From an uncultured Flavobacteriaceae bacterium (GTDB lineage Bacteria; Bacteroidota; Bacteroidia; Flavobacteriales; Flavobacteriaceae), in contig CANLUH010000004.1 of the NCBI GenBank assembly GCA_947494205.1, positions 152,773-216,772 of the forward strand: 64,000 nt of DNA. Reading direction: 5' to 3'. Under the pieces are notes generated by a model. The model worked only from the letters and a program-made list of their open reading frames with translations, was not told the origin of the DNA and ran no database searches. Both the position numbers and the translations under genes were made by a program. Below, piece after piece: positions 13,898 to 48,931 of the stretch; positions within the stretch are counted from its first letter, which is position 1; each line of letters starts with the position of its first letter.

Positions 13898-13898
13898 T

Positions 13899-14696: not shown

Positions 14697-14702
14697 AAAA
14701 AT

Positions 14703-18220: not shown

Positions 18221-18326
18221 TCTATTTATATTCTTTGAAAGACTGTTTTGTTTTTAATTGGGTTTCGCCTTTAGCCTGTCTTGAGCGGAGTCGAAAGGCT
18301 CAACCTGACATAATTAATACTTAAAA

Positions 18327-18378
18327 TAAAGTAAGCGAGATTCGAACCCGCATCTCCTGCGTGACAGGCAGGTGTTTT
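18327..18378 (-). pseudogene. 3'-terminal fragment (~50 nt: anticodon stem through acceptor 3' strand) of tRNA-Asp(GTC); direct repeat of the intact gene at 19021-19092
   Basis: aaagtaagcgagaYtcgaacccgcatctcctgcgtgacaggcaggtgtttt is identical, bar one nucleotide, to the 3' half of the downstream tRNA-Asp. The upstream D-arm/acceptor 5' side is diverged and does not fold. Confidence 0.55.
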
Positions 18379-18517
18379 CCGATTATTATTAGTGCTTTCT
18401 TTGTTTTTATATACCCAATCATTCAAAGTTCGAGCTTTATTTATGAATGCTTATTAAAAGATGAAATCAGTTCTTTATTTTTCTTATCCAATAATAAAAT
18501 ACATTTCTAGACCTTTT

Positions 18518-18895
18518 TTATTTTTTCATAATTTGCTCAACATATCTTTTATGGTTTTCATATCCATTCTTCTTTGGATTTTTCAAATCTATCATACTTC
18601 CTAATCCTGTATCGAAAATTTGCCAATCATGAAGTTTTGCAAGTTCAATCAATTCAAACAACCCATTTTCACCATATAAACTCAGCATCATATTACTTAC
18701 TGGCTCATTACTAATAAAAAAGTCAATCGAGAAGTCTTTTCCTTTTATCTCTCGATGATTCTCATCTTCAATAATATCACTAAATGAACTTTCAAGAATT
18801 CCTGTAAAATCAATCGATTCAAGTTTACCTTCGTCCAATTCTTCAATTGATTTAATAATCTCCTTTGACTTAAATATTACAATATCCCAGCTCAT
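18518..18895 (-). CDS. hypothetical protein
   Basis: 125-aa acidic ORF lying between the tRNA-Asp fragment and the intact tRNA-Asp. Confidence 0.35.
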   Translation of the reverse strand: MSWDIVIFKSKEIIKSIEELDEGKLESIDFTGILESSFSDIIEDENHREIKGKDFSIDFFISNEPVSNMMLSLYGENGLFELIELAKLHDWQIFDTGLGSMIDLKNPKKNGYENHKRYVEQIMKK

Positions 18896-19020
18896 ATTTT
18901 ATTTAGTTAATTTTTTCAACAATCTAATATTTCAAATATAGTAAATCGTTGAGATTATGTATTACTGATATAATCCATTTTAAGTATTCTTTTCGATAGA
19001 AGAATTATTGTAAAGTAAGC

Positions 19021-19092
19021 GAGACTCGAACCCGCATCTCCTGCGTGACAGGCAGGTGTTTTTCCAGTTAAACTATTACTTTCTTTATTTGA
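19021..19092 (-). tRNA. tRNA-Asp(GTC)
   Basis: Manual cloverleaf: acceptor AAAGTAA/TTACTTT, D-stem GTTT/AAAC, anticodon arm CCTGC-CTGTCAC-GCAGG, T-arm GCGGG-TTCGAGT-CTCGC. Confidence 0.7.
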
Positions 19093-19102
19093 TGAAGTAG
19101 GC

Positions 19103-19175
19103 GAGATTCGAACTCGCAACCTCCTACCTGGCAGGCAGGCGCTCTTCCCATTGAGCTACTACTTCTTGTATTATT
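19103..19175 (-). tRNA. tRNA-Gly(GCC)
   Basis: Acceptor GAAGTAG/CTACTTC, D-arm GCTC-AATGGGAA-GAGC, anticodon loop CTGCCAG, T-arm GCGAG-TTCGAAT-CTCGC. Confidence 0.7.
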
Positions 19176-19180
19176 ATTAG

Positions 19181-19250
19181 GAAAGTACATTGGACTCGAA
19201 CCAATATTTCGGGTATGAGACCGACGATTTCCAGTTATCTTAGTACTTTC
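19181..19250 (-). tRNA. tRNA-like element with CAT-containing anticodon-like loop (degenerate; possible Met-like pseudogene)
   Basis: Perfect 7-8 bp acceptor (GAAAGTA/TACTTTC) and a good T-arm (ATTGG-TTCGAGT-CCAAT). The D-arm and anticodon stem do not pair canonically. Confidence 0.3.
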
Positions 19251-19402
19251 TTTTTGGGGAATGAGCAGGATTACTCACGCCATTTTATTTTTGTTAATAG
19301 GTGTTCATGAATACTTCGTATTTGAACCCGCATATACAACTTGGCTAGTTGTCGTTTTCCATATTTTAACCACCATTCCCATTTATATCATTAAAAAAAG
19401 TA

Positions 19403-19475
19403 AAGCGCATGTGAGGCTCGAACTCACGACCCTTAGGTTGTCTGCCTAATGCTCTTCCAACTGAGCTAACACGCT
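19403..19475 (-). tRNA. tRNA-Val(GAC)-like with A at position 33
   Basis: Acceptor with two G-U pairs, D-arm GCTC-AGTTGGAA-GAGC, anticodon arm TTAGG-CAGACAA-CCTAA, T-arm GTGAG-TTCGAGC-CTCAC. The track ORF 19261-19449 is an artefact overlapping this and other elements. Confidence 0.5.
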
Positions 19476-19485
19476 TTACAGTATT

Positions 19486-20853
19486 TTACCACGGACTTAC
19501 TTTATAATCTTTTAATAACGTTCCTACTAATATAGCATTTCCATTTAAGGCCTCTATAATTGGATACAATATTCTTGCTGCTCCATCTACTGAATCTAAA
19601 GGCGGAATATAGCCTTCTTCAAATTGTTTTTTACGCAATGCTTCTTTTGCTCCAGTAGAGATCCAACCCACATCTACTGCGTACATATAAATGTTATCTT
19701 TTTTATAATCTGTTCCAGACGTTTTTGTTAGCATATTTAATGCGGCTTTTGTCATATTAGTATGCGGATGAAAAATCGTTTTATTACTATAGTTAAAAAT
19801 ACCTTCAGAAGAGGTCACATTAATAATAAAACGTTGATTAAATTCTGAATTCTTAAACAATGGAGTCAATTCTTTAATCATAAAATAAGGCGATATTTGA
19901 TTAATTAAATTCACTTCTAACAACTCGTACATAGACACTTCTTCTAGCGTAGAATTCCAACTTGTTTTGGTACGTTCATCTACGGGTTGCCCAAATCTAT
20001 TCATTTCGAAATCTTTATTTTCTGATGTATCTGCTAAGAGTTTCACATCTTCTATAACTGCTGTTTCATTTGGAATTAAATGTGTTTCTCCAGTATATGA
20101 TTCTACTAACTTCTGCTCTTTTTTTACTATTGGCAAGTAATAATTATCATCGTATTTTATTGTTTGTGCTGCATTATTTATAAGAATATCTAAAGTGCTG
20201 TACTTCGATTTGTAATAAGAAATAAAGTGTTCTACTGCTTTTAAATTACGTAAATCTAATCCGTAAATAGTAAGCCTATCTTTCCATAAGTTATAATCGC
20301 TTTCTTTTTTAAAACCTTCTAATGCTAGAGCTGGAAAACGTGTGGTTAACATAACATTTGCATCGGCTCGTAATAATTTTAAAGCGGTTGCAAATCCTAC
20401 TTTTACGCGACCTCCAGTAATAATAACATTTCTATTTTTTAAATCTACTGTTTTAAAACGTTGGTTGTAATTAAATTCTGCGCAGTCTGGACATAAACGG
20501 TTATAGAAAAAATGTAACTTATTGAAATCGGTACCACAACAATAACATCCTTTTGATTTATTTAATAGTTTATAAGTAGTATCCTCCTTGTTATCATCTG
20601 CATATAGCGTTTTATTTCCCAATGCATTTTTTGAAATTACAGTACTTTTTATTGTTACTATATCTTCGGCTTTTACTTTAGTAAAAGCTTCTTTTGTTTT
20701 ATATTTTTTTGCTGTTTTATAAACCTTGGTTATTAATCCTGATAGTAGTGGGTTATCGGGATTATTAAATGGGTCTTTTTTAAGTTCGTTTAAAACCTTA
20801 ATACAGTGTTCCCATTCTTCTTGAGTGTAATTATATGATTCGAATGTATTCAT
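19486..20853 (-). CDS. Zn-ribbon-fused SDR-like oxidoreductase
   Basis: N-terminal CxxC...CxxC (CYCCG...CPDC) followed by a Rossmann motif ITGGRVKVGFATALKLL and NNAAQ. Catalytic residues are atypical. Confidence 0.55.
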   Translation of the reverse strand: MNTFESYNYTQEEWEHCIKVLNELKKDPFNNPDNPLLSGLITKVYKTAKKYKTKEAFTKVKAEDIVTIKSTVISKNALGNKTLYADDNKEDTTYKLLNKSKGCYCCGTDFNKLHFFYNRLCPDCAEFNYNQRFKTVDLKNRNVIITGGRVKVGFATALKLLRADANVMLTTRFPALALEGFKKESDYNLWKDRLTIYGLDLRNLKAVEHFISYYKSKYSTLDILINNAAQTIKYDDNYYLPIVKKEQKLVESYTGETHLIPNETAVIEDVKLLADTSENKDFEMNRFGQPVDERTKTSWNSTLEEVSMYELLEVNLINQISPYFMIKELTPLFKNSEFNQRFIINVTSSEGIFNYSNKTIFHPHTNMTKAALNMLTKTSGTDYKKDNIYMYAVDVGWISTGAKEALRKKQFEEGYIPPLDSVDGAARILYPIIEALNGNAILVGTLLKDYKVSPW

Positions 20854-20861
20854 CTTTACTA

Positions 20862-32551: not shown

Positions 32552-32599
32552 TTCTTCTAATTTTTATTCTGAATTACTCCCAGAATTATTAAACATTTA

Positions 32600-34560: not shown

Positions 34561-34598
34561 ACAGTATTACGCAGTGTTTTTGCGTAGTAAAATTTATT

Positions 34599-36844: not shown

Positions 36845-37013
36845 ATTTTAATATTTTAAAGAACTTTTATTAAACTCCACCAGAATCATCTTCTAGCGGA
36901 GTCCTATTTTTAAAGTCTGATTTCAAAAAAGACTTTTAATTACTCTGCAAATATTTCACTCAATTACGCATTGATTTTGCGTAGTTCAAAAACATTTGAA
37001 AAATTGTTATTAT

Positions 37014-37499
37014 TTATACTACTTTATCGGCACAAGATGAGCTTGCAAATGCATACGGTTTCGCTTTAAAAACAAAACCCATTCCTAAAATGTAGCCCAT
37101 AGCATCTTTAAGTGCTACGTTAGATTCAAACTTTGGATCTGTATTAATATCCGCGTGTACCTCTAAATCAACATTATGTTTATCTAAAATATTACAGATA
37201 GCGTATGCTTCTTCTACAGACATTGTTACCTCTTTAAGCATACGTTCTTTAATACCTATTTGTTTAGTGCCTTTATAATTTCTCATAAACATAAAACCTC
37301 CTTTACCTTCACGTAATACCACAATAACTGTTGCGTATTCGATATGCGATTTATAGGCTTGTGAATCTGAACCCACACAAATTTTTAATCTATAGCCTGC
37401 CTTTTTCTCTTTTACAATAGCATTTTCAATAATCTCCGTAATGGGCTGATCAAAGACTTTACCGCTAAAGTTTCTCCATTTTTGTTGTGTAACTTTCAT
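37014..37499 (-). CDS. RNase H-like DUF458/YkuK-family protein
   Basis: 161 aa; the ICVGSDSQ...HADIN pattern is reminiscent of the YkuK family. Assignment is from memory and weak. Confidence 0.45.
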   Translation of the reverse strand: MKVTQQKWRNFSGKVFDQPITEIIENAIVKEKKAGYRLKICVGSDSQAYKSHIEYATVIVVLREGKGGFMFMRNYKGTKQIGIKERMLKEVTMSVEEAYAICNILDKHNVDLEVHADINTDPKFESNVALKDAMGYILGMGFVFKAKPYAFASSSCADKVV

Positions 37500-37571
37500 A
37501 AGTTCCCATTTTTAGTTAAATATTAATTTTGTGGAACAAACTGAATGAGCTCGTTCATTTTTATTTTAAAA

Positions 37572-37645
37572 TTGAAATATCAGGATTCGAACCTGAATCT
37601 TTCGCCGTATCAAAGCGAAGCTCTAACCAATTAAGCTATATCTCA
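37572..37645 (-). tRNA. tRNA-Ile(GAT)
   Basis: Acceptor TGAGATA/TATTTCA (one G-U), D-arm GCTT-AATTGGTTA-GAGC, anticodon arm TCGCT-TTGATAC-GGCGA, T-arm TCAGG-TTCGAAT-CCTGA. Confidence 0.65.
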
Positions 37646-37919
37646 ATTTATTTTGAGGAACATACTGAGATTAACTCGTTCCTTTATATTTTATTAAAAC
37701 TATACTCGTGAATGCACAGCATTTCGAACCCGTATCTTCTGGCTTAACTCAATAAATTCTATTTTTTAAATAGGATTCGTTGAATTCGCAAACTCATTTC
37801 AACCAGACGCATAGATCTACTTTGCTATTGCTCCTTTTTAGATGAATTAGAAATTATAAGTCAGTTTACCTCATTCACAACGAGGTGTTTTATCTAATAA
37901 ACCAAAATCATCATTTTTG

Positions 37920-37992
37920 TTGTGATAGAAAGAGTTGAACTTTCATCTACTCACGTATCAGGTGAGCGCTTTATCGATTAAGCTATATCACA
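37920..37992 (-). tRNA. tRNA-Ile(GAT), second copy
   Basis: Acceptor TGTGATA/TATCACA, D-stem GCTT/AAGC, anticodon arm CTCAC-CTGATAC-GTGAG, T-arm GAAAG-TTCAACT-CTTTC. Confidence 0.6.
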
Positions 37993-38179
37993 ATTTTGTT
38001 AACCTGATAGGATTAGTTCGCTTCATTTTTATTCTTTTAAAGCTGTGCTCATGAATACTAAAGTATTACGAACCTATACCTCAAGAGTCAAATGCTTTGC
38101 ATTCACGAATACCTATTTAAAAAACAGAAACGAATGAGCTAAAGTCTTGAATGCTACCATTACACTACAAGTTAGTTTG

Positions 38180-38252
38180 TAAGCTTAACAGGATTCGAAC
38201 CCGTATCACTAGATTCGTATTCTAGCATGTTATCCAATTACACTATAAGCTT
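38180..38252 (-). tRNA. tRNA-Arg(ACG)
   Basis: Acceptor AAGCTTA/TAAGCTT, D-stem GTGT/ACAT, anticodon arm CTAGA-ATACGAA-TCTAG, T-arm ACGGG-TTCGAAT-CCTGT. Confidence 0.65.
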
Positions 38253-38274
38253 ATTAATAATCCTTCAGGATTAG

Positions 38275-38348
38275 TTGAGATGCCAGGAATCGAACCTGAA
38301 CCCTTCGCCTTATGAGAGCGATGCTCTACCAGATTAAGCTACATCTCA
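38275..38348 (-). tRNA. tRNA-Met(CAT) (elongator or lysidine-Ile type)
   Basis: Acceptor TGAGATG/CATCTCA, D-arm GCTT-AATCTGGTA-GAGC, anticodon arm TCGCT-CTCATAA-GGCGA, T-arm TCAGG-TTCGATT-CCTGG. Confidence 0.65.
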
Positions 38349-38353
38349 ATTTG

Positions 38354-38426
38354 TTGAGGCAATAGGGATCGAACCTATGACTTTCACGATGTAAGCGTGA
38401 CACTCTTACCACTGAGTTATGCCTCA
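38354..38426 (-). tRNA. tRNA-Val(TAC)
   Basis: Acceptor TGAGGCA/TGCCTCA, D-arm ACTC-AGTGGTAA-GAGT, anticodon arm TCACG-CTTACAT-CGTGA, T-arm ATAGG-TTCGATC-CCTAT. Confidence 0.7.
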
Positions 38427-38436
38427 TTTTAATTTG

Positions 38437-38508
38437 TACTCCGTAAGGGAATCGAACCCTTATTTTCTGCTAGAAAGGCAGACGTCCTAACCGTTAGACG
38501 AACGGAGC
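38437..38508 (-). tRNA. tRNA-Glu(TTC)
   Basis: Acceptor GCTCCGT/ACGGAGT, D-arm GTCT-AACGGTTA-GGAC, anticodon arm TCTGC-CTTTCTA-GCAGA, T-arm AAGGG-TTCGATT-CCCTT. Confidence 0.7.
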
Positions 38509-38513
38509 TTTTG

Positions 38514-38585
38514 TCTAAGGGACAGGATTCGAACCTGTAACCTCCCGCGTCCAAGGCGGGTAAACAACCATTGTTATTCCCCTAA
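38514..38585 (-). tRNA. tRNA-Pro(TGG)
   Basis: Acceptor TTAGGGG/CCCTTAG (two G-U), anticodon arm CCCGC-CTTGGAC-GCGGG (perfect), T-arm ACAGG-TTCGAAT-CCTGT. Confidence 0.6.
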
Positions 38586-38594
38586 TTTTTTTTG

Positions 38595-38666
38595 CGGTTC
38601 ATACGAGAATCGAACTCGTATCTCTCGAGAGACAGTCGAGAAGGATAACCATTACCCCAATGAACC
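38595..38666 (-). tRNA. tRNA, anticodon ambiguous (GTC Asp-like or TGT Thr-like depending on stem register)
   Basis: Acceptor GGTTCAT/ATGAACC, T-arm ACGAG-TTCGATT-CTCGT. The anticodon region TCTCGACTGTCTCTCGAGA admits two registers. Confidence 0.5.
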
Positions 38667-38801
38667 AATTTTGTACATCTACCAAGATTCGAACTCGAAA
38701 CTATAGATTGGAAATGCTTTGCATTCACGAATACCAATTTAAAATTATAGAGTAGTGAGCTAAGTCTACTATGTTACCAATTACACTATAGATGCTTATT
38801 G

Positions 38802-38883
38802 TGGGAATGATAGGATTCGAACCTATTAAGCCTTGGCACCAGTTTTACAGACTGGCTCAACTCACCATCGTTGACGCATTCCC
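38802..38883 (-). tRNA. tRNA-Tyr(GTA)
   Basis: Acceptor GGGAATG/CATTCCC, D-stem TCAA/TTGA, anticodon arm CCAGT-CTGTAAA-ACTGG, 12-nt variable arm, T-arm ATAGG-TTCGAAT-CCTAT. Confidence 0.7.
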
Positions 38884-38894
38884 TTTTATTTTTG

Positions 38895-38967
38895 AGACAA
38901 GGATGAGAGTCGAACTCATAAAATTTAGTTTTGCAGACTAATGCCTTAACCATTCAGCCACCTTGTC
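38895..38967 (-). tRNA. tRNA-Cys(GCA)
   Basis: Acceptor GACAAGG/CCTTGTC, anticodon arm TTAGT-CTGCAAA-ACTAA, T-arm ATGAG-TTCGACT-CTCAT. Confidence 0.65.
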
Positions 38968-38973
38968 ATTTAG

Positions 38974-39045
38974 CGATACCGAAGGGATTCGAACCCTTAA
39001 CCTGATGGTTAACAACCAACTGCTCTGCCATTGAGCTACGATATC
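38974..39045 (-). tRNA. tRNA-Asn(GTT)
   Basis: Acceptor GATATCG/CGGTATC (one G-U), D-arm GCTC-AATGGCA-GAGC, anticodon loop TTGTTAA, T-arm AAGGG-TTCGAAT-CCCTT. Confidence 0.65.
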
Positions 39046-39050
39046 ATGTT

Positions 39051-39180
39051 TTGGAGTTACGAAGACTTACACTCCGTTTTGCAAATTGCAAATGAGCTTG
39101 CGAATTCAACGAAACTTATTTATCAAAATAAATTTCAGTGAGTTAAACCCGTTGTTTTAGCCAGTTAAACTATAACCCCA
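39051..39180 (-). ncRNA. tRNA-like element whose acceptor strands (GGGGTTA / TAACTCC) are ~115 nt apart; possible intron- or insertion-containing tRNA
   Basis: 5' side has acceptor plus a perfect D-arm GTTT-AACTGGCTA-AAAC. The 3' side has CGGAG-TGTAAGT-CTTCG plus a complementary acceptor strand. The intervening segment contains the palindrome TTGCAAATTTGCAA. Confidence 0.25.
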
Positions 39181-39188
39181 TAGTATTG

Positions 39189-39275
39189 CGGAGGACAAAG
39201 GAATCGAACCTTCACCGCCATATGGCGGACTTGTTTAGCAGACAAGCGCAACGAACCAACATTTGCCTATCCTCC
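39189..39275 (-). tRNA. tRNA-Ser(GCT)
   Basis: Acceptor GGAGGAT/GTCCTCC, D-stem GCAA/TTGC, anticodon arm CTTGT-CTGCTAA-ACAAG, long variable hairpin CCGCC-ATAT-GGCGG, T-arm GAAGG-TTCGATT-CCTTT. Confidence 0.7.
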
Positions 39276-39290
39276 ATTTAATTTATTTAG

Positions 39291-39363
39291 TCTGAGAGAC
39301 AGGAGTCGAACCTGCAACCTCTCGCATCCAAAGCGAGTAAACTATCCATCGTTATCCTCTCAG
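39291..39363 (-). tRNA. tRNA-Pro(TGG), second copy
   Basis: Acceptor CTGAGAG/CTCTCAG, anticodon arm CTCGC-TTTGGAT-GCGAG, T-arm GCAGG-TTCGACT-CCTGT. Confidence 0.6.
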
Positions 39364-39509
39364 TTTTGCGGAAGGAGTGGGAGTAGTTCATGTTTTTTCT
39401 ATTTTATTAAATAGGTATTCATGAATACTTTGTATTTCGAATCCACACGAGTCATTAACTCCGAACAGTTTTCAAGACTGTGGCCACCTCCTATTGCCCT
39501 TCCGTTTTG

Positions 39510-39582
39510 TTGACGCGGTGAGGATCGAACTCACGACCTCGGCATTAAAAGTACCTTGCTCTACCAACTAAGCTACACGTCA
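39510..39582 (-). tRNA. tRNA-Lys(TTT)
   Basis: Acceptor TGACGTG/CGCGTCA, D-arm GCTT-AGTTGGTA-GAGC, anticodon loop CTTTTAA (stem 4/5 paired), T-arm GTGAG-TTCGATC-CTCAC. Confidence 0.6.
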
Positions 39583-39809
39583 ATTTTTCTATATTTCTAT
39601 TTCAATGAACACCATAAAAAAAGCACCTCTTGTAACGGAAGGTGCTTTTTTTAAATCTATGTATACATCAACTCATGTATACACAACCTTCCTAGTATAT
39701 TTTATAAATCTTTCATCACAACTAAATGTTGCAACTGGTCTCGGCGAGCGAAACCAAAGATTTTGTTTAATTATATGTTGTAAATAATTCCTCATTATTG
39801 TTTTGTTAT

Positions 39810-40085
39810 TTTGATGGTGCAAATATGAAACGCTTTTTTGAATTACACAAGAAAAATTTAAATTTAATTAACTGATTATCAATTATTTATATTGTTTTTA
39901 GACACTATAATCCCTGTCCGTTTTTTAACGGATAATCAACATTTTTACAATAGCCTGTCTCACAATTGTTTTGCTGTTTCAAATTCTTATTTTACTGTTT
40001 TTAGTTTTTCAAATTCACTTAAAAATAATTTCAAAAAAAACGCCCAACTTTTAGGTTGGACGCTTTATGTTCTACTTTTAATTAT
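39810..40085. promoter_or_regulatory. conserved ~260-bp intergenic cassette (copy 2 of 3)
   Basis: Shares ggtgcaaatatgaaacgcttttttgaattacacaag...ccctgtccg...cctgtctcacaattg...aaaaaacgcccaacttttaggttggacgc with the copies at 23510 and 48495. Heads the large minus-strand tRNA array. Confidence 0.5.
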
Positions 40086-40220: not shown

Positions 40221-40520
40221 TTAATAATTCAAATGTTCTAAAACTTGTTCTATTCTTTTTTTAAATACTTCTTTATTTTCACATTGATTAAATAATCCAC
40301 TGGAAATATTTTTATGTGTTGACTTATTGATTTCTTTTACTAACTCTTCCAAATTATTTTTTATATCCAATTCATTATAATTTGTAATAATTTTCAGAAT
40401 ATTCTCTTCATCTAAAGCAAAAGCATCTATTCCACAACACTCAACTAAACAATGAATTTCTAAATCTTTCCAAAACTCTTCATTTTTTTCTAACAAAAAA
40501 TCTATTTCGAAATTTCCCAT
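40221..40520 (-). CDS. hypothetical protein
   Basis: 99-aa ORF downstream of two copies of the TACGCA-N8-TGCGTA operator-like motif (40546-40570 and 40716-40740). Confidence 0.35.
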   Translation of the reverse strand: MGNFEIDFLLEKNEEFWKDLEIHCLVECCGIDAFALDEENILKIITNYNELDIKNNLEELVKEINKSTHKNISSGLFNQCENKEVFKKRIEQVLEHLNY

Positions 40521-40769
40521 TCAACTATTTATTATTGACTCTACAAATATTCAGCTCTAATGCGCATTGTTTTTACGTAGTCAATTATTTTATTACAAAT
40601 GCTTTTAAAAACTCTGCCAGAATACAATTTCCGACAGAGCGTTTCTTAATTACTAAAAAATCAATTAATAGCACTAGTAACTAATTATTAATTACAGTGC
40701 AAATATTTAATAGTATTACGCAATGTTTTTACGTAGTAAATATTTTTATTAAAATTAATTATAGATTAT

Positions 40770-41822
40770 CTATAAGTTCTCTCTATTAGGGATTTCCTCT
40801 AAACTTAGCTCGAGAGCTAAGTTGATTATTTTCCTTGGTGTATATAACGTTTTTTCCAAATCACTTATTTGTAAGTTTTTCGAATTTGCTTTATAAAGAA
40901 AGCTACTGTAGCTTAATTTGGATATGCTTCTACCAAATTCATCTTTATATTTTTCTTTTAACTTTAAAGTAATTTCTTCTAATCGATTTTTTAATACTAC
41001 AATAGTCTTTAATAACTGATCAAGCCAGTTTTCAATCTCTTTCAAGAAATTCTTGACTTCAATTTCATTTTTATAGCTTAATTTTTTAATCTCATTACGA
41101 ATATGTTCAATCTTCATACCTTCCCAGTTTTTTGCTTTTAACACTGGTATTTGCCACTTTGACTGTGCTGCTTTCCAATAATCTGTTTTCACTTTTACTT
41201 GATGTATTTTAAATCCTGGAAGTTCAATAATAGTTAGATGTCCGCCATGACATGCTCCTGTATCTATACCATAAGTATTATTCTTAATTTTTGGAGTATC
41301 ACCAACGACATGATGCCCATAGATTATAGGTTTTGTTCCTTTGTAATAGTCTGACCAATATTTACCTTCTTCATATTTAGTTTCAAGATGCCTACTTCCA
41401 GAAGTTGTTCCAGCCAAAACTTCTTTCTTTTGCTCACTTAATATTTTGTCATGCTCAAAAAAAGCATGAACTATTATAGCGTCATTTGTTTCATAATAAT
41501 AAGGAAGTGTTTCTAACCATTCTTTAAATTCTTTATATTCATCAGCAAATTGAACTTTTACTATCTCTTGAGAATAACTTAAAACACCTCTTAAATGTTT
41601 TCTCTCATGATTACCCATTAACACTATTGCATTATCTCGTTTTTTAAAATAGTTATATAGTTCTAATGATTTGTTTCCTCTGTCTACAAGATCTCCGAGT
41701 GAAATTATTAAATCACTTTCGGTTATTCCTATTTGATTCGATAGTTCTATAAACTCATCATAGCATCCATGTAAATCTCCTACTATGTATGTTTTCTTCA
41801 TTTTTTTGGGTTTTAGACACAC
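40770..41822 (-). CDS. PPP-family (lambda-phosphatase-like) Ser/Thr or nucleic-acid phosphoesterase with C-terminal extension
   Basis: GDLHGCYDEF, GDLVDRGNKS and GNHE metallophosphatase motifs, plus a ~130-aa coiled-coil-like tail. Confidence 0.75.
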   Translation of the reverse strand: MCLKPKKMKKTYIVGDLHGCYDEFIELSNQIGITESDLIISLGDLVDRGNKSLELYNYFKKRDNAIVLMGNHERKHLRGVLSYSQEIVKVQFADEYKEFKEWLETLPYYYETNDAIIVHAFFEHDKILSEQKKEVLAGTTSGSRHLETKYEEGKYWSDYYKGTKPIIYGHHVVGDTPKIKNNTYGIDTGACHGGHLTIIELPGFKIHQVKVKTDYWKAAQSKWQIPVLKAKNWEGMKIEHIRNEIKKLSYKNEIEVKNFLKEIENWLDQLLKTIVVLKNRLEEITLKLKEKYKDEFGRSISKLSYSSFLYKANSKNLQISDLEKTLYTPRKIINLALELSLEEIPNRENL

Positions 41823-41861
41823 ATTAAGAGCTATTATAATTACTCTTAATGTGTAGTCATT

Positions 41862-42431
41862 CTATTTTCTTTTTTCAAATGGGGGCTCCCATTTTTTCAA
41901 TTTCATGATGGCTTTTACTTCAGCATAGGATAACGGATAAAAGTCATGACAGTCTACGCCTACATCGAATGCATTCATGGTTTCATCGTCTTGTAAGCTT
42001 CCGTGCGAGTGTCCGTATAAATGCCATGTTCCTCGAAAACTGGATCGCCAAACACGCATAGCGTAGTGTAACAATATAATTTTCTGTTTACCATTTGGTG
42101 CTTCTTCATCGGCAACATTTAATTCGAAATAGTCTTTTGTCCATTCAAATCGATTAGTATTAGACATCGCTGCGCCTTCGTGATTACCTTTTATTAAATA
42201 GATTTTACCATTTAATTGCTCTAAAATACCTTTCATTCTATCGGCTTTGCACAAGCCTAAATCTCCCAAATGATAGACCTTATCATTTTTACCAATTTTA
42301 CTGTTCCATCGTTTTATAAGTTCTTGATCCATTTCTTCTACTGTATTAAATGGACGGTTAGAGAACTTTATAATATTTTCGTGACCAAAGTGATGGTCTG
42401 ATGTAAAATATACATCTGTTGCATACTTCAT
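41862..42431 (-). CDS. calcineurin-like metallophosphoesterase
   Basis: DHHFGHE, GDLG and GNHE motifs; 189 aa. Confidence 0.7.
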   Translation of the reverse strand: MKYATDVYFTSDHHFGHENIIKFSNRPFNTVEEMDQELIKRWNSKIGKNDKVYHLGDLGLCKADRMKGILEQLNGKIYLIKGNHEGAAMSNTNRFEWTKDYFELNVADEEAPNGKQKIILLHYAMRVWRSSFRGTWHLYGHSHGSLQDDETMNAFDVGVDCHDFYPLSYAEVKAIMKLKKWEPPFEKRK

Positions 42432-42665: not shown

Positions 42666-43199
42666 TTATTTTTTCTTTTTACTCTTCTTATTCTTCGCTT
42701 TTGTTTTCTTCTTACTTGGTTTCATTTTACTCTTTATTCTGCTTATTTCAATATCAATATAGCTAATAAAAGAATCGTTATAACCAAATTGTTTAGCTGT
42801 CTTAAAGGCTTTTATAGCGTTTTTATACTGTTGTTTTATTTCAAACAATTGTCCTTGCTTATCCCAAATACAGCCTTTATCTATTCCTTTTACAGTTAAT
42901 GCAAAATCGATTAGTTTTTGTGCTTCATTAAAATCGTCATTCCACAATAATGTTTGTATATACTTATAATATACTTTTTGAAAATCCATTTTATTAGCTA
43001 ATGCTTCTGCATAATATATTTTTGCTTGTTCGTAATCTCCTAATTGCTCTGCTTGTATTTGCCCCATTAAATATAAAGCATATACATTTTCAGATTCGTA
43101 TGACAAAGCGTAGTTTAAATTTTCTACAGCTTCTTCTAACTCGTATGGATAAGCATCTATAGCTTTAAGCACGTAATTATTTAATAAACTTGTTTCCAT
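42666..43199 (-). CDS. TPR-repeat protein with lysine-rich C-terminus
   Basis: TPR-like Y/A/L periodicity and a C-terminal KKKTKAKNKKSKKKK stretch. Confidence 0.55.
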   Translation of the reverse strand: METSLLNNYVLKAIDAYPYELEEAVENLNYALSYESENVYALYLMGQIQAEQLGDYEQAKIYYAEALANKMDFQKVYYKYIQTLLWNDDFNEAQKLIDFALTVKGIDKGCIWDKQGQLFEIKQQYKNAIKAFKTAKQFGYNDSFISYIDIEISRIKSKMKPSKKKTKAKNKKSKKKK

Positions 43200-43296
43200 C
43201 GTTTTAAGTTTTTAAGATTAAAAGTAAGCGTGTCTCGATACACTTTTTATTCGTTTCTCTTAGAAAAACCACTCGACATGACGTACTTTTAAACTA

Positions 43297-43989
43297 TTAT
43301 TTTAATTCATTACGCAGGTCATTTTTTAATGTACTGCGTTGTTTTTTATAAGTTTTCACAACTTTGTTTTTCTTAAAATCGGATCCTTTAAAAACCTGTA
43401 TTGGGTTACCTCGTTCTAATTTTAAATGGTTTTCCCATTGATTTTTAATACTAGATTTAAGTGCTTTAAGTTGTAACTCGTTTACTTTTTCTTGTAAACG
43501 TATTCTTGCTATTTTTTTATTTTGATGTTGTGAGCGGCTATCCATTACTAACACTTGCGTATTAGTTGGTTTATGGATAGCCCTAATAGCGGAGCTCACT
43601 TTATTTACATGTTGCCCTCCTGGCCCTGAACTTCTTGTAGCTTGATAGTTAATATCTTTTTCATGTATCTGAAATTGTTGTTTTTGTTCAATTTCGTATA
43701 GCCCAACAAACCAGTTTTTACGTTTATGTTTTGGCCTAAATGTTGAAACTCCTATCCATTGTATTGTGCCTTTCCATTGATTTAAAAATGTACTTAGATC
43801 TTTTCCTTCCAACTGAATCGTGACAGATTGTAATGTCATGTTTTCAATTCCTTTTTCTCTTTGTAATATTTTATAATCTATAGTATTGCTTTTTACGGCG
43901 TCTAAAAATTTCTTTAATACTTGTGCTACAACCCAGCAACATTCTGCTGGACCTCGACCAGAGGTTATTTGTACTATTTTTGTTTCCAA
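43297..43989 (-). CDS. prfH: peptide chain release factor H-like (PrfH), GGQ-domain protein
   Basis: SSGPGGQHVNKVSSAIRAIHKPTNT...RSQHQNK matches the class-I RF catalytic domain. At 230 aa it lacks RF domain 1, as PrfH does. Located two genes from rtcB. Confidence 0.8.
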   Translation of the reverse strand: METKIVQITSGRGPAECCWVVAQVLKKFLDAVKSNTIDYKILQREKGIENMTLQSVTIQLEGKDLSTFLNQWKGTIQWIGVSTFRPKHKRKNWFVGLYEIEQKQQFQIHEKDINYQATRSSGPGGQHVNKVSSAIRAIHKPTNTQVLVMDSRSQHQNKKIARIRLQEKVNELQLKALKSSIKNQWENHLKLERGNPIQVFKGSDFKKNKVVKTYKKQRSTLKNDLRNELK

Positions 43990-43993
43990 TGTT

Positions 43994-44548
43994 TTATGTT
44001 TTTTCTAAAGGATTTTTAGAAAGTAATACATTACCTACTGGACTTTTACCTTTTTCAATGAGTTGTAACGCGGCTTTTACTGCCCAACATTTATCGCTAG
44101 AATGAATGTTAGAGTAATAGCTTAATAGTGTTTTAGGCTCTACTATTTTCCAGCCGTTTACTTCTATAGCTTCTACAGTAGCCGATTCGAAAAAGTCTAT
44201 AGTTACTCTTATTTGTTTTCCAGAGCTTAACCAATCAATCTTTTCGTAACGTCTAAAATTCTCATTACTTGGCATGTGATCGTATCTTGTCCACACTTTT
44301 TTAAAGCCTTCTTGTGCTAATATTACCATAACTTCTGCAACGTCTTTTGGACGCACAAAAATGTCTATATCCTTATGATCATGTGCATGTTTATATTCTG
44401 TATGGTCTTCTGGTGACATAAAATGCCATGCCCAACCTCCAGAGATTATAATCCATGATTTTAATTTATTTAAAATGTCCAAACCTTGTTCTATTCTATA
44501 GTTTGGCCATTGTTCTCCGTATCTTTTTATGTTATGATTTGCTCCCAT
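43994..44548 (-). CDS. hypothetical protein, possible minimal nucleotidyltransferase
   Basis: The ISGGWAW...HKDIDIFVRP pattern loosely resembles a GS/DxD NTase core. Assignment is weak. Confidence 0.35.
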   Translation of the reverse strand: MGANHNIKRYGEQWPNYRIEQGLDILNKLKSWIIISGGWAWHFMSPEDHTEYKHAHDHKDIDIFVRPKDVAEVMVILAQEGFKKVWTRYDHMPSNENFRRYEKIDWLSSGKQIRVTIDFFESATVEAIEVNGWKIVEPKTLLSYYSNIHSSDKCWAVKAALQLIEKGKSPVGNVLLSKNPLEKT

Positions 44549-44677
44549 TTTTTTTAGTCTTTAGCTATTAGCGTTAATTGAAATTCTACATTGCGTTAGG
44601 GATTGAGGCATTTGTTGAAGCTCCTCGCAGAGAGCGACTGCCAAAAGCCCGACCCTTGTGGTAACGCCAAAAACTTA

Positions 44678-46069
44678 TTACCTATCCATTCTCACAATTT
44701 TTGGCGTAAACTTACCTACAACCTCTACCAATTCTAATTGATTTTGCATGACTTTTTCTATGTTTTTATAAGCCATTGGTGCTTCGTCTATTCCGCCACC
44801 TATTAATGAGACTTCATGTTTTTGTAATTCTTTTTTAACTGCACTTTGCGTTAACTTCATTTTACATTGTCGTCTAGACAATAATCGTCCAGCGCCGTGC
44901 GATGCCGATTGTAAACTGTCCTTATTTCCTAATCCTCTTACTATAAATCCTGGCGCTGTCATAGACCCTGGGATAATACCTAATTCTCCTTTTTTGGCTG
45001 GTGTTGCTCCTTTTCTATGTACTATACATTCTTCACCATTTACCTCTTGTTTCCAAGCAAAATTGTGATGATTTTCTATTTTAGCAATTGGTCTTTCTCC
45101 TAATAGTTTTGCTATTCTTTTATGAATATCATCATGGCAAGCTTGCGCATAATCTCCAGCTAAATTCATGGCCAACCAATATTCTTGTCCGTCGTGCGTA
45201 TTTAAATCTAACCATGCTAAATGCTGTACATGTTTTGGCAACGGACATTGTTTTGTTGCTAAATAGGTATAGTGTTTTGCGATGTTAGCACCTAATCCTC
45301 GTGATCCACTGTGCGATAAAACGCCTAGATATTCTCCTATTGGTAAATCCCATTCGTTGTTTACATCTAGAATACTTACTTCTCCAAATTCTACAAAATG
45401 GTTTCCTCCTCCAGAGGTTCCTAATTGCTTATAGGCTTTATCTTTTAAGCGTTTTACTAACGGAATGGTTTTAAATTCGTCACGCTCAAAAACTGGGCTA
45501 TCATGTTTTATTTTATGCGTTTCGTACATTCCAAATTTGGTATGTTCGGATAAAATATTTTCCAATTGATGCTTTTTCCCCTTTAAGTAAGAAGCTTTTA
45601 CTGGATAAATGGTTAAACACATTCTGCACCCAATATCTACACCTACCCCATAAGGTATTACTGCATTTTTTGTGGCTAATACACCACCAATTGGTAAGCC
45701 ATAACCTACATGTGCATCTGGCATTAAAGCCCCTGCAACAGAAATTGGCAATTTTAAAGCATCGTATAATTGGTATTTTGCCTGCTCTTCAATTTCGTTT
45801 TCGCCATAAATATGGAATGGTGCTCTGTGAGTGTTTAACTTTTGTTTTGTTACATGTACAGGATCTAACAGACTTTCTGCTATTTTCCCCCAAACGCCAT
45901 CACCTTTATAGTGTTCTGGATTTAATAATACCTTTTTTGCTTCTGTTAATATTTTTTCTTTTTTTACTCGTTTCTGATAACGATTAATCTGACCTAAAGT
46001 CACATTAATACTATTGTTCTTTGGAAAGCCTAATTTTATTAAGTCTTTTCCGCTTAATTTTTTTCCCAT
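44678..46069 (-). CDS. rtcB: RNA 3'-phosphate/5'-OH ligase RtcB
   Basis: 463 aa with the C-terminal SASHGAGRLLSRRQ signature and an internal conserved His-rich region typical of RtcB. Confidence 0.9.
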   Translation of the reverse strand: MGKKLSGKDLIKLGFPKNNSINVTLGQINRYQKRVKKEKILTEAKKVLLNPEHYKGDGVWGKIAESLLDPVHVTKQKLNTHRAPFHIYGENEIEEQAKYQLYDALKLPISVAGALMPDAHVGYGLPIGGVLATKNAVIPYGVGVDIGCRMCLTIYPVKASYLKGKKHQLENILSEHTKFGMYETHKIKHDSPVFERDEFKTIPLVKRLKDKAYKQLGTSGGGNHFVEFGEVSILDVNNEWDLPIGEYLGVLSHSGSRGLGANIAKHYTYLATKQCPLPKHVQHLAWLDLNTHDGQEYWLAMNLAGDYAQACHDDIHKRIAKLLGERPIAKIENHHNFAWKQEVNGEECIVHRKGATPAKKGELGIIPGSMTAPGFIVRGLGNKDSLQSASHGAGRLLSRRQCKMKLTQSAVKKELQKHEVSLIGGGIDEAPMAYKNIEKVMQNQLELVEVVGKFTPKIVRMDR

Positions 46070-46114
46070 TGTTTTTCGTTTTAAGAAAAGGTGCTTTTTA
46101 TTTACCTTCTCTTT

Positions 46115-47497
46115 TTAATACATTGACATTCTTAAAATTAAATACGCAATCCAGAAGATTACTTTTAAAATTAACACCAAATTATAATCACCAGCTTCGT
46201 TTCCAGACATCTGTCTTCTTTCTATTAATCTGGCATGTGCAGTTCTTTCTTGATTTTGGGGCTGATATGGTCTTTCATACCCCATTTCTCTTTTGCGTCT
46301 AACTTGCGAATTACTAATCCAAAGGTTTATTAACTCGACAGATTTACTATCAATTTCTTGATTGCATTTTGCCTTAGCTTGAACAATTTCAAAACTTGGC
46401 AATTCTATTTCAACAGTTGCTAGTCGTTTCATTGGTTCGCCTTCAACTTCTCGCCTTAAAGAAAAAATGGAACACCTACCTTCATCACAATCTTCAGCAT
46501 ATTCAGAAACACAGTGCTGCATTTCATTACCTTCATCATATAAATCCCCTGAATTTAAAAGCTCTTCTGTTTTATAAACAACAGTTTTGCCTTCCACATT
46601 TTCTTCAATCCGTAAATGTTTAATCCCTGAAGATTTCCACGAAAAAACGTCTCCTTTTTCTTTTAAATAAACATTACGATGCCATTCTTGAGTTTGATTT
46701 AACAAAACGTCTAATGTTCTATTTTTAATTGAATAGGATTGATTTTCACGGTATTTATATGCTAAATAATCGACTACTTCATTTAGTTCATTAGTATTTA
46801 AATTTTCTTCTTTTGAAAAAAACTGAACTACCGATGTCCAAAAATCTTCCTGAGCTTCTCGAAATATTGATAATCTTGAAAAAGCTATTATTTTCGCTGT
46901 TTTTGTTGAAGCTCCAAAACCTAATGCCTGCGCATAACGTAAAGCAGCATTTACAGACATAATACATGTTATATTTCTAAATTCATGCGCCATTTTAACT
47001 GTTAGGTTTATTGGCATATTAGGCAAACTTTTTACACTTTTTCCTTTTCCTAATTGAATATACCAAAGCATCTGTTTTTTATTATTTATAAAAAATGATT
47101 GCTCTAAAAACTTTGGCGTTTCATAGAGTGCAAAACAGTACTTAATTATCGAACTTAGTAGCTCTGCTTCCTCTATTGAATCCTTTCTCCAGCCTTCGAT
47201 ATCCCTTTTAATTCTATCTCCAAAACCACTGATATTGTGTAAAACTTCAACATTATTATAATTTCTTAATAAAGCATAACATTTTTGATTATATAACTGA
47301 ATCAAAAGCTTTTTAAAAACATCTCTTTTCCATATGTGTCTTTTCTTACTCGTTTTAGAGAAAAATTCTCTTAGCATTGATTCTATTGTCCCTTTATAAC
47401 GGGTTGGTTGATTTTTTTCGTTATATATTCTTTCAACTAATTTTACATAACTACCTTTTTCTATATTCTTGTTTTTTATTTCCCAATTTGTTTTCAT
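46115..47497 (-). CDS. hypothetical protein (460 aa; possible PcfJ-like/zincin-like EMQHC motif)
   Basis: Long ORF with a C-terminal GNEMQHCVSEYAEDC motif. No secure family assignment. Confidence 0.4.
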   Translation of the reverse strand: MKTNWEIKNKNIEKGSYVKLVERIYNEKNQPTRYKGTIESMLREFFSKTSKKRHIWKRDVFKKLLIQLYNQKCYALLRNYNNVEVLHNISGFGDRIKRDIEGWRKDSIEEAELLSSIIKYCFALYETPKFLEQSFFINNKKQMLWYIQLGKGKSVKSLPNMPINLTVKMAHEFRNITCIMSVNAALRYAQALGFGASTKTAKIIAFSRLSIFREAQEDFWTSVVQFFSKEENLNTNELNEVVDYLAYKYRENQSYSIKNRTLDVLLNQTQEWHRNVYLKEKGDVFSWKSSGIKHLRIEENVEGKTVVYKTEELLNSGDLYDEGNEMQHCVSEYAEDCDEGRCSIFSLRREVEGEPMKRLATVEIELPSFEIVQAKAKCNQEIDSKSVELINLWISNSQVRRKREMGYERPYQPQNQERTAHARLIERRQMSGNEAGDYNLVLILKVIFWIAYLILRMSMY

Positions 47498-48494
47498 TTT
47501 AAAGTTCGCTACTAAAGGTTATTGCCCATGTAAAACCACTTAAAATCTTAACACATAGTATGAATTTATATGTGTATGAAATTATTTTCTAATTTGACTT
47601 TTGCTACGTAATGAAAAAGTATTGTTTTAATTAATAATTATTTTGAACTTGTGTATTATATATAAGCTCAAGAAAACTTTATTTATAAGCTTCTTTTTGG
47701 AATATTAATATAGCATCGTGTTTTTATTTTATGCTTTCTTTCATAAACTGAAATAGAATGCATAACCGTTTTACACCATTACTTAGCTTATTATACTATT
47801 TTTACTTAGCACATAAATAGCCCTATAGATAAGACTCTTAGGAATTTGACGTAGCTAGTTTTTATTTGGTTACCCTCAAAATTTCTCTTTACCTGCTTAA
47901 TAAACGTCGGACTTCCTTTTGTCTTTATTTTTTATGTTTTCTGGTTTCTTTAGACGTTTTAATAATTGTTTGCCTGTTTAGATGATTCCAGTATCACTCC
48001 CGATGTGGAATCGGTATTTAGATTGTATGTAAGTGTTTCATTTTTAAATTTTGTGTTGTGAATTGCATTTTGAATCGTGTCGACTACGACCAAACTACCA
48101 TTCTGGTTGTGTTGTTTCATACCAATTACAACTTAAATCGAGCTAAATAAAACGCCCTTTTTTCCTTTATTTATTATTAAAAAAAGAAACCGTAACTATG
48201 GCTATGATTTATTTTTTATAATTCAACTAAAGAAAAAAATCATCATTTTATTTTAATCTCTTTTTAAATTATAATTGGTATAACTGTTTGGATGTTTTTT
48301 AGCAGACTTGCTAATGACTGAAAACAAAAAACCCGAAACAGTTTTTAAATTGCTTCGGGTTTTTCATTTATCTATGAAAAGTGGTATTAACTATACGCTC
48401 GAAGCACAACAAAAGGTAGAATTCCTTTTGGATCGGTTTGATTAGATATAAATAAACTCATACTTCGATTTTAGTTAAACTTAATTTTGTTGCT

Positions 48495-48745
48495 TTATTG
48501 CGATGCAAATATGTAATGTATTTTTCAATTACACAAATAAAATATCGATTTTATTTCATTGATAATCAGGTATTTAAAACCAAATAAGACAATATTATCC
48601 CTGTCCGAATAGCTTCAGATTTGTAATCCCTTGGCGATGCGCTATGTAGTTATTTAAGACACAACTTCTAGGCATTCATAGATTTTTAAAATTTTTATAA
48701 AAAAAACGTCCAAATTTAATTATTTGGACGTTTTTTTTTATTTTC
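48495..48745. promoter_or_regulatory. conserved ~260-bp intergenic cassette (copy 3 of 3)
   Basis: cgatgcaaatatgtaatg...ccctgtccg...aaaaaaacgtccaaatttaattatttggacgttttttttt. On the minus strand it faces the ORF-free 47500-48490 stretch. Confidence 0.45.
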
Positions 48746-48931
48746 TAAACTGTATCTATCTATTAAAATGCTTATAATATCGCAGTTTTTCGCCCTGATT
48801 ATGTAATTCAAATAGATTCATACAAGTATTTATTTTAATTTTTTTGTGCTTTTATGCAGTGCAAATATGTGATTTTTATTTTAATTTAAGAAAAAAAGCT
48901 ATGATTTTTATAAAATCATAGCTTTTCATAA

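Follow-up and report, generated by a model that had tools for sequence, protein, structure and literature searches.

Two bacterial systems, the TrcR regulon of Anabaena and the rsr-yrlBA-rtcBA operon of Salmonella, are the best-studied and closest analogues of the locus that we describe here, an approximately 37-kb block of RNA-repair genes, transfer RNA (tRNA) arrays and structured RNAs from an uncultured Flavobacteriaceae bacterium. In Anabaena sp. PCC 7120, the TrcR regulon comprises the trn L-array, rtcB, alr0739-alr0740 (slipin), rimK and rsgA and is induced by translational stress (PMC8421152, PMC10272220). In Salmonella, the rsr-yrlB-yrlA-rtcB-rtcA operon with its regulator RtcR is induced by damaged tRNA in the form of tRNA halves (PMC7790460). 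The window that we analysed is the whole 64,000-nucleotide (nt) stretch from position 152,773 to 216,772 of the forward strand of contig CANLUH010000004.1 (assembly GCA_947494205.1), and it holds the locus at 17.5-56.1 kb, counted from its first letter. With a probability of roughly 0.72, we read this region as a locus on the chromosome that responds when the translation machinery is damaged, and that was inherited within the Flavobacteriaceae and enlarged here by added modules. This reading draws on four analogues: the TrcR regulon, the Salmonella operon, the accretion of PrfH to RtcB, and the ‘syntax’ of operons that combine RlaP with RNA ligases.

Like the TrcR regulon, the locus combines RtcB and a slipin/SPFH protein with a tRNA array under what would be a single DNA-binding regulator, with a site overlapping each unit's core promoter. 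RimK, too, is found in a Psychroserpens version of the locus. However, the genes in Anabaena are dispersed between the chromosome and a megaplasmid, whereas here they form one contiguous, co-directional block. TrcR is a ribbon-helix-helix protein acting on direct repeats at -10, whereas the candidate here contains a WYL domain and the site is a palindrome at -33, and ATP-dependent ligases, PNKP, PrfH and GOLLD RNA have not been reported in Anabaena. The arrays share with L-arrays (PMC8421152) their many closely spaced, co-directional tRNA genes, which appear supernumerary and are patchy among relatives. By analogy, a putative L-array-like silence with induction under translational stress may apply to them as well. 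With the Salmonella operon, the locus has in common that tRNA-mimic noncoding RNAs are encoded together with RtcB and a scaffold protein, and in Chryseobacterium the Ro60 gene is preceded by the same palindromic site as the genes of our locus. In contrast to Salmonella, the scaffold here is SPFH and not Ro60: no Ro60/TROVE match was found among the window reading frames scanned, and SPFH holds the adjacent position. The sigma-54/CARF activator and RtcA are also missing here.

Burroughs and Aravind (NAR 2016) reportedly described an RNA-repair operon ‘syntax’ that includes RlaP, and are said to have paired an SPFH/Band-7 scaffold with a tRNA-like RNA. The combination of a ligase, an RlaP transferase, a kinase/phosphatase and a scaffold is shared with our locus. 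The locus appears to differ in stacking several such systems together with tRNA arrays, and in having a GOLLD-like RNA, a defined palindromic site and a WYL regulator. The syntax is cited here through PMC7824862 and PMC6514570. In the accretion described in PMC6514570, RtcB and PrfH are joined by a Pol-beta transferase and a TPR protein, the same four genes as those found here at 42666-46069 on the minus strand, and PrfH-RtcB2 repairs ribosomes cut by colicin E3 (PMC13166195). By analogy, the module is predicted to repair 16S ribosomal RNA (rRNA) and to release stalled peptides. Finally, the adjoining Rnl1 and bifunctional kinase-phosphatase PNKP, together with tRNA genes, resemble the tRNA restoration system of phage T4, but the setting here is cellular rather than viral, and Rnl1-PNKP is one of at least three ligation routes.

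How widespread is such a locus? The comparative sample consisted of the best 80 of at least 518 SPFH relatives in species-representative genomes, and these 80 all come from Flavobacteriaceae or unclassified Bacteroidota. Counts are given over the 82 fetched loci (referred to by L numbers where they need to be told apart), and linkage frequencies are conditional on the presence of SPFH, because all loci were fetched through it. The SPFH homologues are 63-96% identical across the Flavobacteriaceae. Within 10 kb of SPFH, a TPR gene is found in 52 of the 82 loci, RtcB in 41, PrfH in 23 and a WYL gene in 24, while at least five tRNA genes stand beside SPFH in 45 loci and none in 18, with a maximum of 26. 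The recurring, co-directional order begins with RtcB, a transferase, PrfH and TPR, followed by the tRNA array, optionally an RNase H-like gene, a palindromic site and a GOLLD-like RNA, then the tRNA-mimic RNA, SPFH, a further optional palindromic site and a second type of RtcB. The initial annotation of this DNA, made from the sequence alone, had called the combination unusual for Bacteroidota; the number of SPFH relatives and the tRNA-rich loci among them speak against this, as does the finding that the palindromic site and the WYL regulator reach Chryseobacterium.

The locus also exists in smaller forms. Olleya sp. YS, Lacinutrix, Psychroserpens sp. SPM9 and a metagenome-assembled Winogradskyella genome feature versions of 8.5-12 kb, compared to ~37 kb here, which lie, as in the window, between the ACPS/KAS genes and the WYL gene. 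Because these shorter versions share their flanks with the window, the size of the present locus is better explained by modular expansion of an old locus than by the insertion of a single island, and the earlier idea of an island that is simply present or absent at this site is not supported. The slot after SPFH is occupied by RtcB in Olleya, but here by Rnl1-PNKP and two proteins absent from the fetched loci. In this slot, Rnl1-PNKP thus seems to have taken the place of the RtcB of relatives, a case of ligase displacement. In an uncultured Psychroserpens (L083), the same DUF434-ACPS end is found, and AlkB-like, RimK and R2K ATP-grasp genes replace Rnl1/PNKP. Located among the repair genes of L083, at 5325-8553 and 11901-12695, are an AlkB-like 2OG oxygenase, RimK and two R2K ATP-grasp genes, which suggests base-damage repair and peptide tagging as alternative modules.

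In the window, the unit extends from a DUF434/DUF5616 gene at 17504, via the seventh palindromic site at 52034, to a pair of CAP and WYL genes ending at 56131. The initial annotation had drawn an island from 18240 to 48930; its contents stand, but the real unit is larger on both sides. All of its protein assignments (Rnl2, Rnl1, PNKP, RtcB, PrfH, nucleotidyltransferases, DEDDh exonuclease, metallophosphatases, RNase H-like protein and SPFH) are supported by Pfam and NCBIfam profiles. The inventory was correct as far as it went, lacking the GOLLD-like RNA, the ~330-nt tRNA-mimic RNA, the palindromic site and the WYL regulator gene. Its central idea, a tRNA supply joined with a broad RNA-repair toolkit, is supported by 21 tRNA genes that share one locus with ligases and end-healing enzymes. 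It had also named grounds on which it should be abandoned, namely identical content in relatives, tRNAs of the ordinary core complement and failed profile searches. We found instead that the content varies, that the array tRNAs appear to be a separate lineage and that the profiles support the enzymes.

Two structured RNAs are contained in a stretch free of open reading frames (ORFs) at 32552-34598. The first, of ~330 nt (32940-33275, minus strand), combines a conserved 5' domain and a hairpin with two YrlA-like units that resemble circularly permuted tRNAs. Each unit has a T-arm, an acceptor hairpin and a D-arm, and the second has a complete anticodon arm. It is located upstream of SPFH in 79 of the 82 loci, and in the other three SPFH lies within ~500 nt of the contig start. 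Compensatory changes are seen for 49 of its 68 predicted pairs across 49 sequences. Its Rfam matches to YrlA and tRNA are weak, with 35.3 bits for YrlA against a gathering score of 69, and the two permuted tRNA units and the distinct 5' domain distinguish it from YrlA.

The second RNA, ~840 nt long (33510-34350, minus strand), resembles GOLLD (RF02032). In a permissive Rfam scan, its conserved 3' half at 33510-33987 aligned to all model positions (1-416) with 136.1 bits (E = 4e-36), and the Olleya counterpart likewise covered all 416 positions with 124.9 bits (E = 1e-32), both below the Rfam gathering score of 150. A 5' domain extends a further 360 nt upstream and is conserved in ten other genomes, and 78 of 237 predicted pairs show compensatory changes in 11 sequences. 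The RNA carries an internal T-arm/D-arm piece. An artefactual GOLLD match caused by this embedded tRNA-like piece was considered and rejected, because the conserved blocks align over the whole model. The full-length RNA is found in 11 fetched loci, with a twelfth copy (L003) interrupted by the contig end. Psychroserpens L083 holds one more, situated before the gene for a 610-aa protein and with no SPFH or tRNA-mimic RNA within 10 kb.

GOLLD assembles as a 14-mer nanocage, the structure of which has been solved, and to our knowledge it has been without a known function since 2009. GOLLD RNAs have been described in phages, prophages and mycobacterial tRNA arrays, so that an association with tRNA arrays is already established (PMC12286853, PMC6582537). 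The RNA found here agrees with them in its length, its position beside tRNA genes and its internal tRNA-like piece. It differs in its score below the cut-off, its Flavobacteriaceae host and its chromosomal, non-phage setting. A further difference is that it has a promoter in common with RNA-repair genes and lies directly upstream of the SPFH unit or the 610-aa gene. A literature search returned nothing linking GOLLD with RNA repair or RtcB, and the least expected element of the locus is this GOLLD-like RNA, which has a repair-regulon promoter and lies outside a phage context. It is tempting to speculate that it functions within a cellular response to RNA damage and is made from a WYL-controlled promoter that it shares with SPFH and the tRNA-mimic RNA. 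It could serve as a cage or platform holding tRNAs, tRNA halves or ribosomes during repair, the phage and mycobacterial GOLLDs being mobile copies; this proposal is tentative, and we consider it possible but rather doubtful.

The genes and RNAs are tied together by repeated promoter cassettes. The initial annotation had noted a near-total single-strand layout with shared promoter cassettes, and both proved real: the genes are co-directional, and the cassettes fall into two classes, type 1 with seven copies and type 2 with four. Type 1 reads ACTACGCAAAAACAATGCGTAAT, ~9 nt, AAATATTTGCA. The two 6-bp arms of TACGCA-N7-TGCGTA form an inverted repeat, and a -7-like box comes after them. The pattern TACGYAAAA-N4-TGCGYA occurs seven times on the minus strand, compared to 0.03 expected by chance. 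Bacteroidota promoters follow the consensus TTTG / TAnnTTTG, on which our -33/-7 reading is based, and the palindrome appears to occupy the expected position of the -33 element. Four type-1 cassettes on the minus strand precede the gene for a 231-aa protein (21645-21710, site 21678-21696), Rnl1-PNKP (31241-31306, site 31274-31292), the GOLLD-like RNA, tRNA-mimic RNA and SPFH (34535-34600, site 34568-34586), and a tRNA-like element followed by the 610-aa gene (36932-36997, site 36965-36983). Two of the remaining copies are found before a DUF6331 gene (40561, 40717) and one before the gene for a 176-aa protein (52034). Exact matches to the palindromic site are present in 39 of the 82 loci. A sigma-70 promoter scan, with a consensus unsuited to Bacteroidota, gave fewer sites than in shuffled sequence.

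Type-2 cassettes have an ordinary TTG / TAcATATTTG pair with an upstream GGACAGGG..TGTCT element. They precede the tRNA cluster at 22867-23275 (cassette 23496-23624, minus strand, with the element in the form GGACAGGG..TGTYT), the array at 37571-39582 (cassette 39799-39927, minus strand) and two terminator-ended units at 48.3-48.9 kb. On the minus strand, GGACAGGG-N-TGTCT is found at 23597, 39900 and 48587, ~70 nt upstream of the tRNA-array promoters, and it recurs in three other genera 400-500 nt upstream of the first tRNA of the array (L038 at 7563, L049 at 6226, L077 at 5128). This element is possibly a second regulatory site.

What could recognise the palindrome? The candidate is the WYL protein at the right end of the locus, which features a WYL domain (PF13280, E = 2e-11; PADLOC WYL, E = 1e-22) and a WCX domain (PF25583, E = 2e-7), with a weak PafBC match in the WYL-WCX part. 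In 15 of the 24 loci with a WYL-WCX gene within 10 kb of SPFH, an exact palindrome lies 39-118 bp upstream of the WYL start, in the gap that separates the WYL gene from a repair operon read divergently. The seventh site of the window is similarly placed, with the 176-aa gene on one side and the divergent CAP and WYL genes on the other. In Chryseobacterium, the palindrome is found before RtcB followed by the 610-aa gene, before RlaP-R2K-RlaP and before the Ro60 gene, and in C. oncorhynchi the WYL gene is divergent from the RtcB unit. In C. lactis (L086, 15825-17435), TACGCA-N7-TGCGTA stands ~75 bp upstream of the Ro60/TROVE gene, and because the same site precedes it, the Ro60 system may belong to the same regulon in Weeksellaceae. 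The arrangement resembles PafBC-like WYL regulons, which likewise combine WYL and WCX domains with a predicted site upstream of the regulator's own gene and in target promoters. PafBC-type regulators activate promoters without a -35 element, and because the palindrome here replaces the -33 element, activation is as likely as repression.

The window contains 21 tRNA genes for 16 amino acids, all on the minus strand and in three clusters, as called by ARAGORN in agreement with Rfam, and at least ten tRNA-like remnants on the same strand, bearing out the claim of at least 20 foldable tRNAs with degenerate elements. The largest cluster packs 14 genes into 2.0 kb (37571-39582: Lys, Pro, Ser, Asn, Cys, Tyr, Asp, Pro, Glu, Val, Met, Arg, Ile, Ile), and its spacing and shared direction are those of an L-array. 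Its gene order is common to the arrays of other genera (K S S N C Y W D P E .. L L R Q H F), and arrays are patchy among the genera having the locus, which fits the L-array concept. By Rfam score, most array tRNAs are canonical (55-69 bits). Do they merely duplicate the housekeeping set? Between two genera, the tRNA-Pro(UGG) genes that lie outside arrays share 97% identity, whereas the two copies in the window are 67% identical to these and 82% (up to 92%) identical to copies from other arrays. In tRNA-Met, the same pattern is seen, with array copies distinct from non-array copies. The array tRNAs thus appear to be a lineage apart from housekeeping copies, a partial conclusion from two isoacceptors.

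Taken together, these elements lead to a working proposal. A WYL-domain DNA-binding protein would recognise TACGCA-N7-TGCGTA at the -33 position of seven promoters, and RNA breakage or stalled translation would turn these promoters on, by analogy to RtcR in Salmonella and TrcR in Anabaena. The induced products would repair broken tRNA and rRNA: PNKP and the metallophosphatases would heal ends, trimming and rebuilding of 3' ends would fall to the DEDDh exonuclease together with the RlaP/Pol-beta transferases, and Rnl1, Rnl2 and RtcB would carry out the sealing, while PrfH together with RtcB would free and repair ribosomes cut in 16S rRNA. Extra tRNAs, made from the arrays' own canonical promoters, could replace cleaved tRNAs or soak up the nuclease. 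The SPFH protein probably acts as a scaffold or decoy together with the double tRNA-mimic RNA. Transcription of the GOLLD-like RNA would start at the same regulated promoter. What we observed directly is the content of genes and RNAs, the conservation of the locus, the RNA structures, the palindrome with its position and the distinctness of the array tRNAs; the pairing of regulator and site, the inducing signal, the enzymatic steps in the cell and the roles of SPFH and the two RNAs are proposals.

The T4-like logic of tRNAs with Rnl1 and PNKP, the GOLLD RNAs known from phages and prophages and the few PHROG matches all fit a prophage or phage remnant, of which the locus would be the anti-defence arm, as the initial annotation had considered. 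Yet structural, lysis and integration genes are lacking: searches with Pfam and PHROG gave no integrase, capsid or terminase match in the scanned ORFs of the interval from 15.2 to 56.1 kb, in line with what had been noted before. Moreover, SPFH has no relative in 2.9 million viral contigs, the GOLLD-like region gave no blastn match in 50,697 phage records, and the conserved chromosomal position, next to chromosomal biosynthetic genes, does not fit either, making a phage origin highly improbable. A recently acquired mobile island, in which a tRNA L-array landed together with repair genes by horizontal transfer, would agree with the reported horizontal spread of L-arrays and the patchiness of arrays and GOLLD-like RNA among genera. 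Rnl1 and the two proteins of 350 and 221 aa that accompany it occur in none of the 82 loci and PNKP in two only, PNKP shares 40-44% full-length identity with phage PNKPs, and a PcfJ-like domain is present. The backbone, however, sits at the same chromosomal site in several genera, SPFH identity declines smoothly with taxonomic distance, and the G+C content is uniform with that of the flanks. Profile scans and a repeat search gave no integrase, relaxase, attachment repeat or flanking direct repeat. We consider recent acquisition quite improbable; an old locus that gained single modules by horizontal transfer is the better fit.

A different emphasis would be that the tRNAs and tRNA-like RNAs are mainly decoys, with arrays, double mimic and GOLLD-like RNA absorbing or misleading anticodon nucleases and the ligases clearing up afterwards. 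Sponge and nuclease-inhibitor roles have been proposed for the Anabaena array tRNAs and for YrlA, respectively, and the locus has many degenerate or altered tRNA-like elements, with a 6-nt loop, long insertions or permuted units. But the canonical scores of most array tRNAs and their 16 amino acids, as well as the breadth of ligation and end-healing enzymes, favour true repair, and decoy and spare-part roles are compatible with each other; a mainly decoy function seems unlikely to us. The interpretation as an inherited damage-response locus has points against it, too. Induction of the locus is something we infer for every member of the Flavobacteriaceae, and so is the pairing of the WYL protein, the residues 1-157 of which gave no helix-turn-helix match in Pfam, with the palindrome; activator and repressor modes are indistinguishable from sequence. 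The tRNA arrays may not be co-regulated with the repair genes, because in the window they lack the palindromic site. The ‘supernumerary’ status of their tRNAs rests on two isoacceptors and on presence or absence among relatives, a partial conclusion drawn from the window. Seven ORFs remained without an assignable function after Pfam, NCBIfam, PHROG and PADLOC searches, and a relaxed Pfam scan of the small and unassigned ORFs and the WYL N-terminus gave noise only. Finally, the RNA damage may stem from phage defence, from toxins of competitors, from the cell's own toxins or from antibiotics.

The locus ends on its left with the DUF434/DUF5616 gene (17504-18220, minus strand; Pfam E = 4e-54 and 6e-20), which also ends the locus beside ACPS in L001, L010 and L083. 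Beyond it, at 1-17468 on the plus strand, lies a fatty-acid or polyketide-like biosynthetic cluster including KAS and ACPS, which appears unrelated to the RNA-repair finding. The matching flank in Olleya holds FabA/ApeP-like and SDR genes, and the cluster is conserved beside the locus in several genera. Inside the locus, a degenerate tRNA-like element (18327-18395, minus strand; Rfam tRNA, 34.9 bits) is 82% identical to the tRNA-Asp region at 19000-19090 (repeat family D10). It is followed by a cluster of four ARAGORN genes (19010-19476, minus strand) for Asp, Gly, an odd CAU-like tRNA and Val; the odd one (19180-19249, minus strand) has its CAU-type anticodon inside a 6-nt loop (CTCATA). Adjacent on the minus strand, at 19486-21557, are an SDR-family protein of 455 aa (adh_short E = 2e-18; PHROG FabG-like), the 140-aa N-terminal part of which is unmatched, and the 231-aa protein. 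This pair is kept in L060, L082 and L083, and a Val/Asp-type tRNA cluster adjoins it again in L072, L076, L082 and L083.

The next part of the locus, all on the minus strand, is rich in RNA-processing enzymes. An Rnl2-type RNA ligase (21831-22829; PF09414 E = 1e-23, PF18043 E = 6e-19) is followed by the cluster of tRNA-His, Gln and Leu genes (22867-23275; three genes by ARAGORN and Rfam) and by three genes at 23942-26740 encoding RlaP-N (356 aa), a Pol-beta-like protein (331 aa) and RlaP (248 aa), with PF10127 E = 3e-28 and 8e-71 for the RlaPs. The 331-aa protein (24993-25988) is likely a third nucleotidyltransferase, as indicated by its GDLDI motif, a phrog_24943 match (E = 3e-27) and a faint match to the Pol-beta palm, while BLASTP against the two RlaP proteins gave nothing significant and no PDB sequence match was found. 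A DEDDh 3'-5' exonuclease (26908-27471; RNase_T E = 5e-17) is found in seven loci. The 350- and 221-aa proteins (27516-29294) have no Pfam, NCBIfam or PADLOC matches, and the 350-aa protein has no PDB sequence match. They adjoin the T4-type PNKP (AAA_33 kinase, HAD_PNKP E = 2e-51) and Rnl1-type ligase (PF09511 E = 2e-14) at 29307-31237. SPFH, the marker gene of the locus family, is located at 31451-32551 (Band_7 E = 4e-30). Between its stop codon and the next promoter cassette, a Flavo-1 RNA motif scores above its cut-off with 53.6 bits (31345-31420, plus strand). Homologues are found at the equivalent spot in ~10 loci and also elsewhere, so Flavo-1 may be a dispersed hairpin or terminator element.

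Further tRNA-like elements surround the structured RNAs. One candidate (33285-33496, minus strand), recognised by direct reading of the sequence, has acceptor strands and a T-arm, the latter from repeat family D13, around a ~130-nt insertion. Rfam gave additional tRNA-like matches at 32948-33002, 33017-33079, 36732-36844 and 37841-37911, besides the element at 18327-18395, and the repeat search revealed more T-arm-like remnants within repeat families. The 610-aa protein (34599-36431, minus strand) is strongly conserved, with more than 2000 homologues that are 65-95% identical among the matches listed, Chryseobacterium included; its gene adjoins RtcB and the WYL gene in L084, and a structure model gave no usable fold match. 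It is preceded at 36480-36844 (minus strand) by a tRNA-like (UAC) element with a 44-nt variable arm and then a leader with five AAAGTTCCTATA-type repeats. These repeats are spaced 57-81 nt apart, and the first sits in the variable arm. The RNase H-like protein (37014-37499, minus strand; PF04308 E = 7e-34) directly follows the tRNA array in eight loci.

On the other side of the array, the DUF6331 gene (40221-40749, minus strand) has its two type-1 cassettes in tandem before it and is followed by two metallophosphoesterases of 350 and 189 aa (40770-42431, minus strand; Pfam Metallophos). In the ribosome rescue/repair module, RtcB (PF01139 E = 7e-82) and PrfH (TIGR03072, 223 bits versus a cut-off of 167) are encoded 689 nt apart with one gene between them. 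The TPR protein is located at 42666-43199, and the transferase on the PrfH side at 43994-44548 has weak matches only, its position fitting the description in PMC6514570. A protein with a PcfJ-like domain (46115-47497, minus strand; PF14284 E = 5e-15) is also found in L029 and L065. By sequence reading, each of the two short units at 48325-48908 (minus strand; ~140 and ~170 nt) consists of a type-2 promoter and an intrinsic terminator, making them candidate small RNAs. A 53-aa ORF comes after them (47959-48120, minus strand).

An extra EF-G gene occupies 48932-51370 (minus strand). Its product is 55-68% identical to the best matches in other genera, and a solitary homologue outside the str operon is present in Kordia and Chryseobacterium (L085 and L086, both at 7600-8000); linkage to the repair locus was seen in this genome only. 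The gene is preceded by a conserved leader peptide (..NGAIRTVYFG..) and two intrinsic terminators, which looks like control via ribosome stalling. The 176-aa protein (51469-52052, minus strand) carries the seventh palindromic site (52034-52052) in its promoter, and the same succession of site and gene is found in L006, L007, L009, L011 and L016. Read away from this site on the plus strand, a CAP-domain protein and the WYL-WCX-PhyH protein (52101-56131) complete the locus.

If our reading is correct, the locus would place a relative of GOLLD in a probably inducible operon of culturable marine bacteria, near RNA ligases and SPFH, where direct experiments would become possible. The natural series of versions from 8.5 to 37 kb at one chromosomal site would show how RNA-repair modules are swapped, with RtcB in place of Rnl1 and PNKP, or AlkB/RimK/R2K in place of other sets. 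And a WYL-domain regulator of RNA repair in Flavobacteriales would add a third solution to those of RtcR and TrcR.

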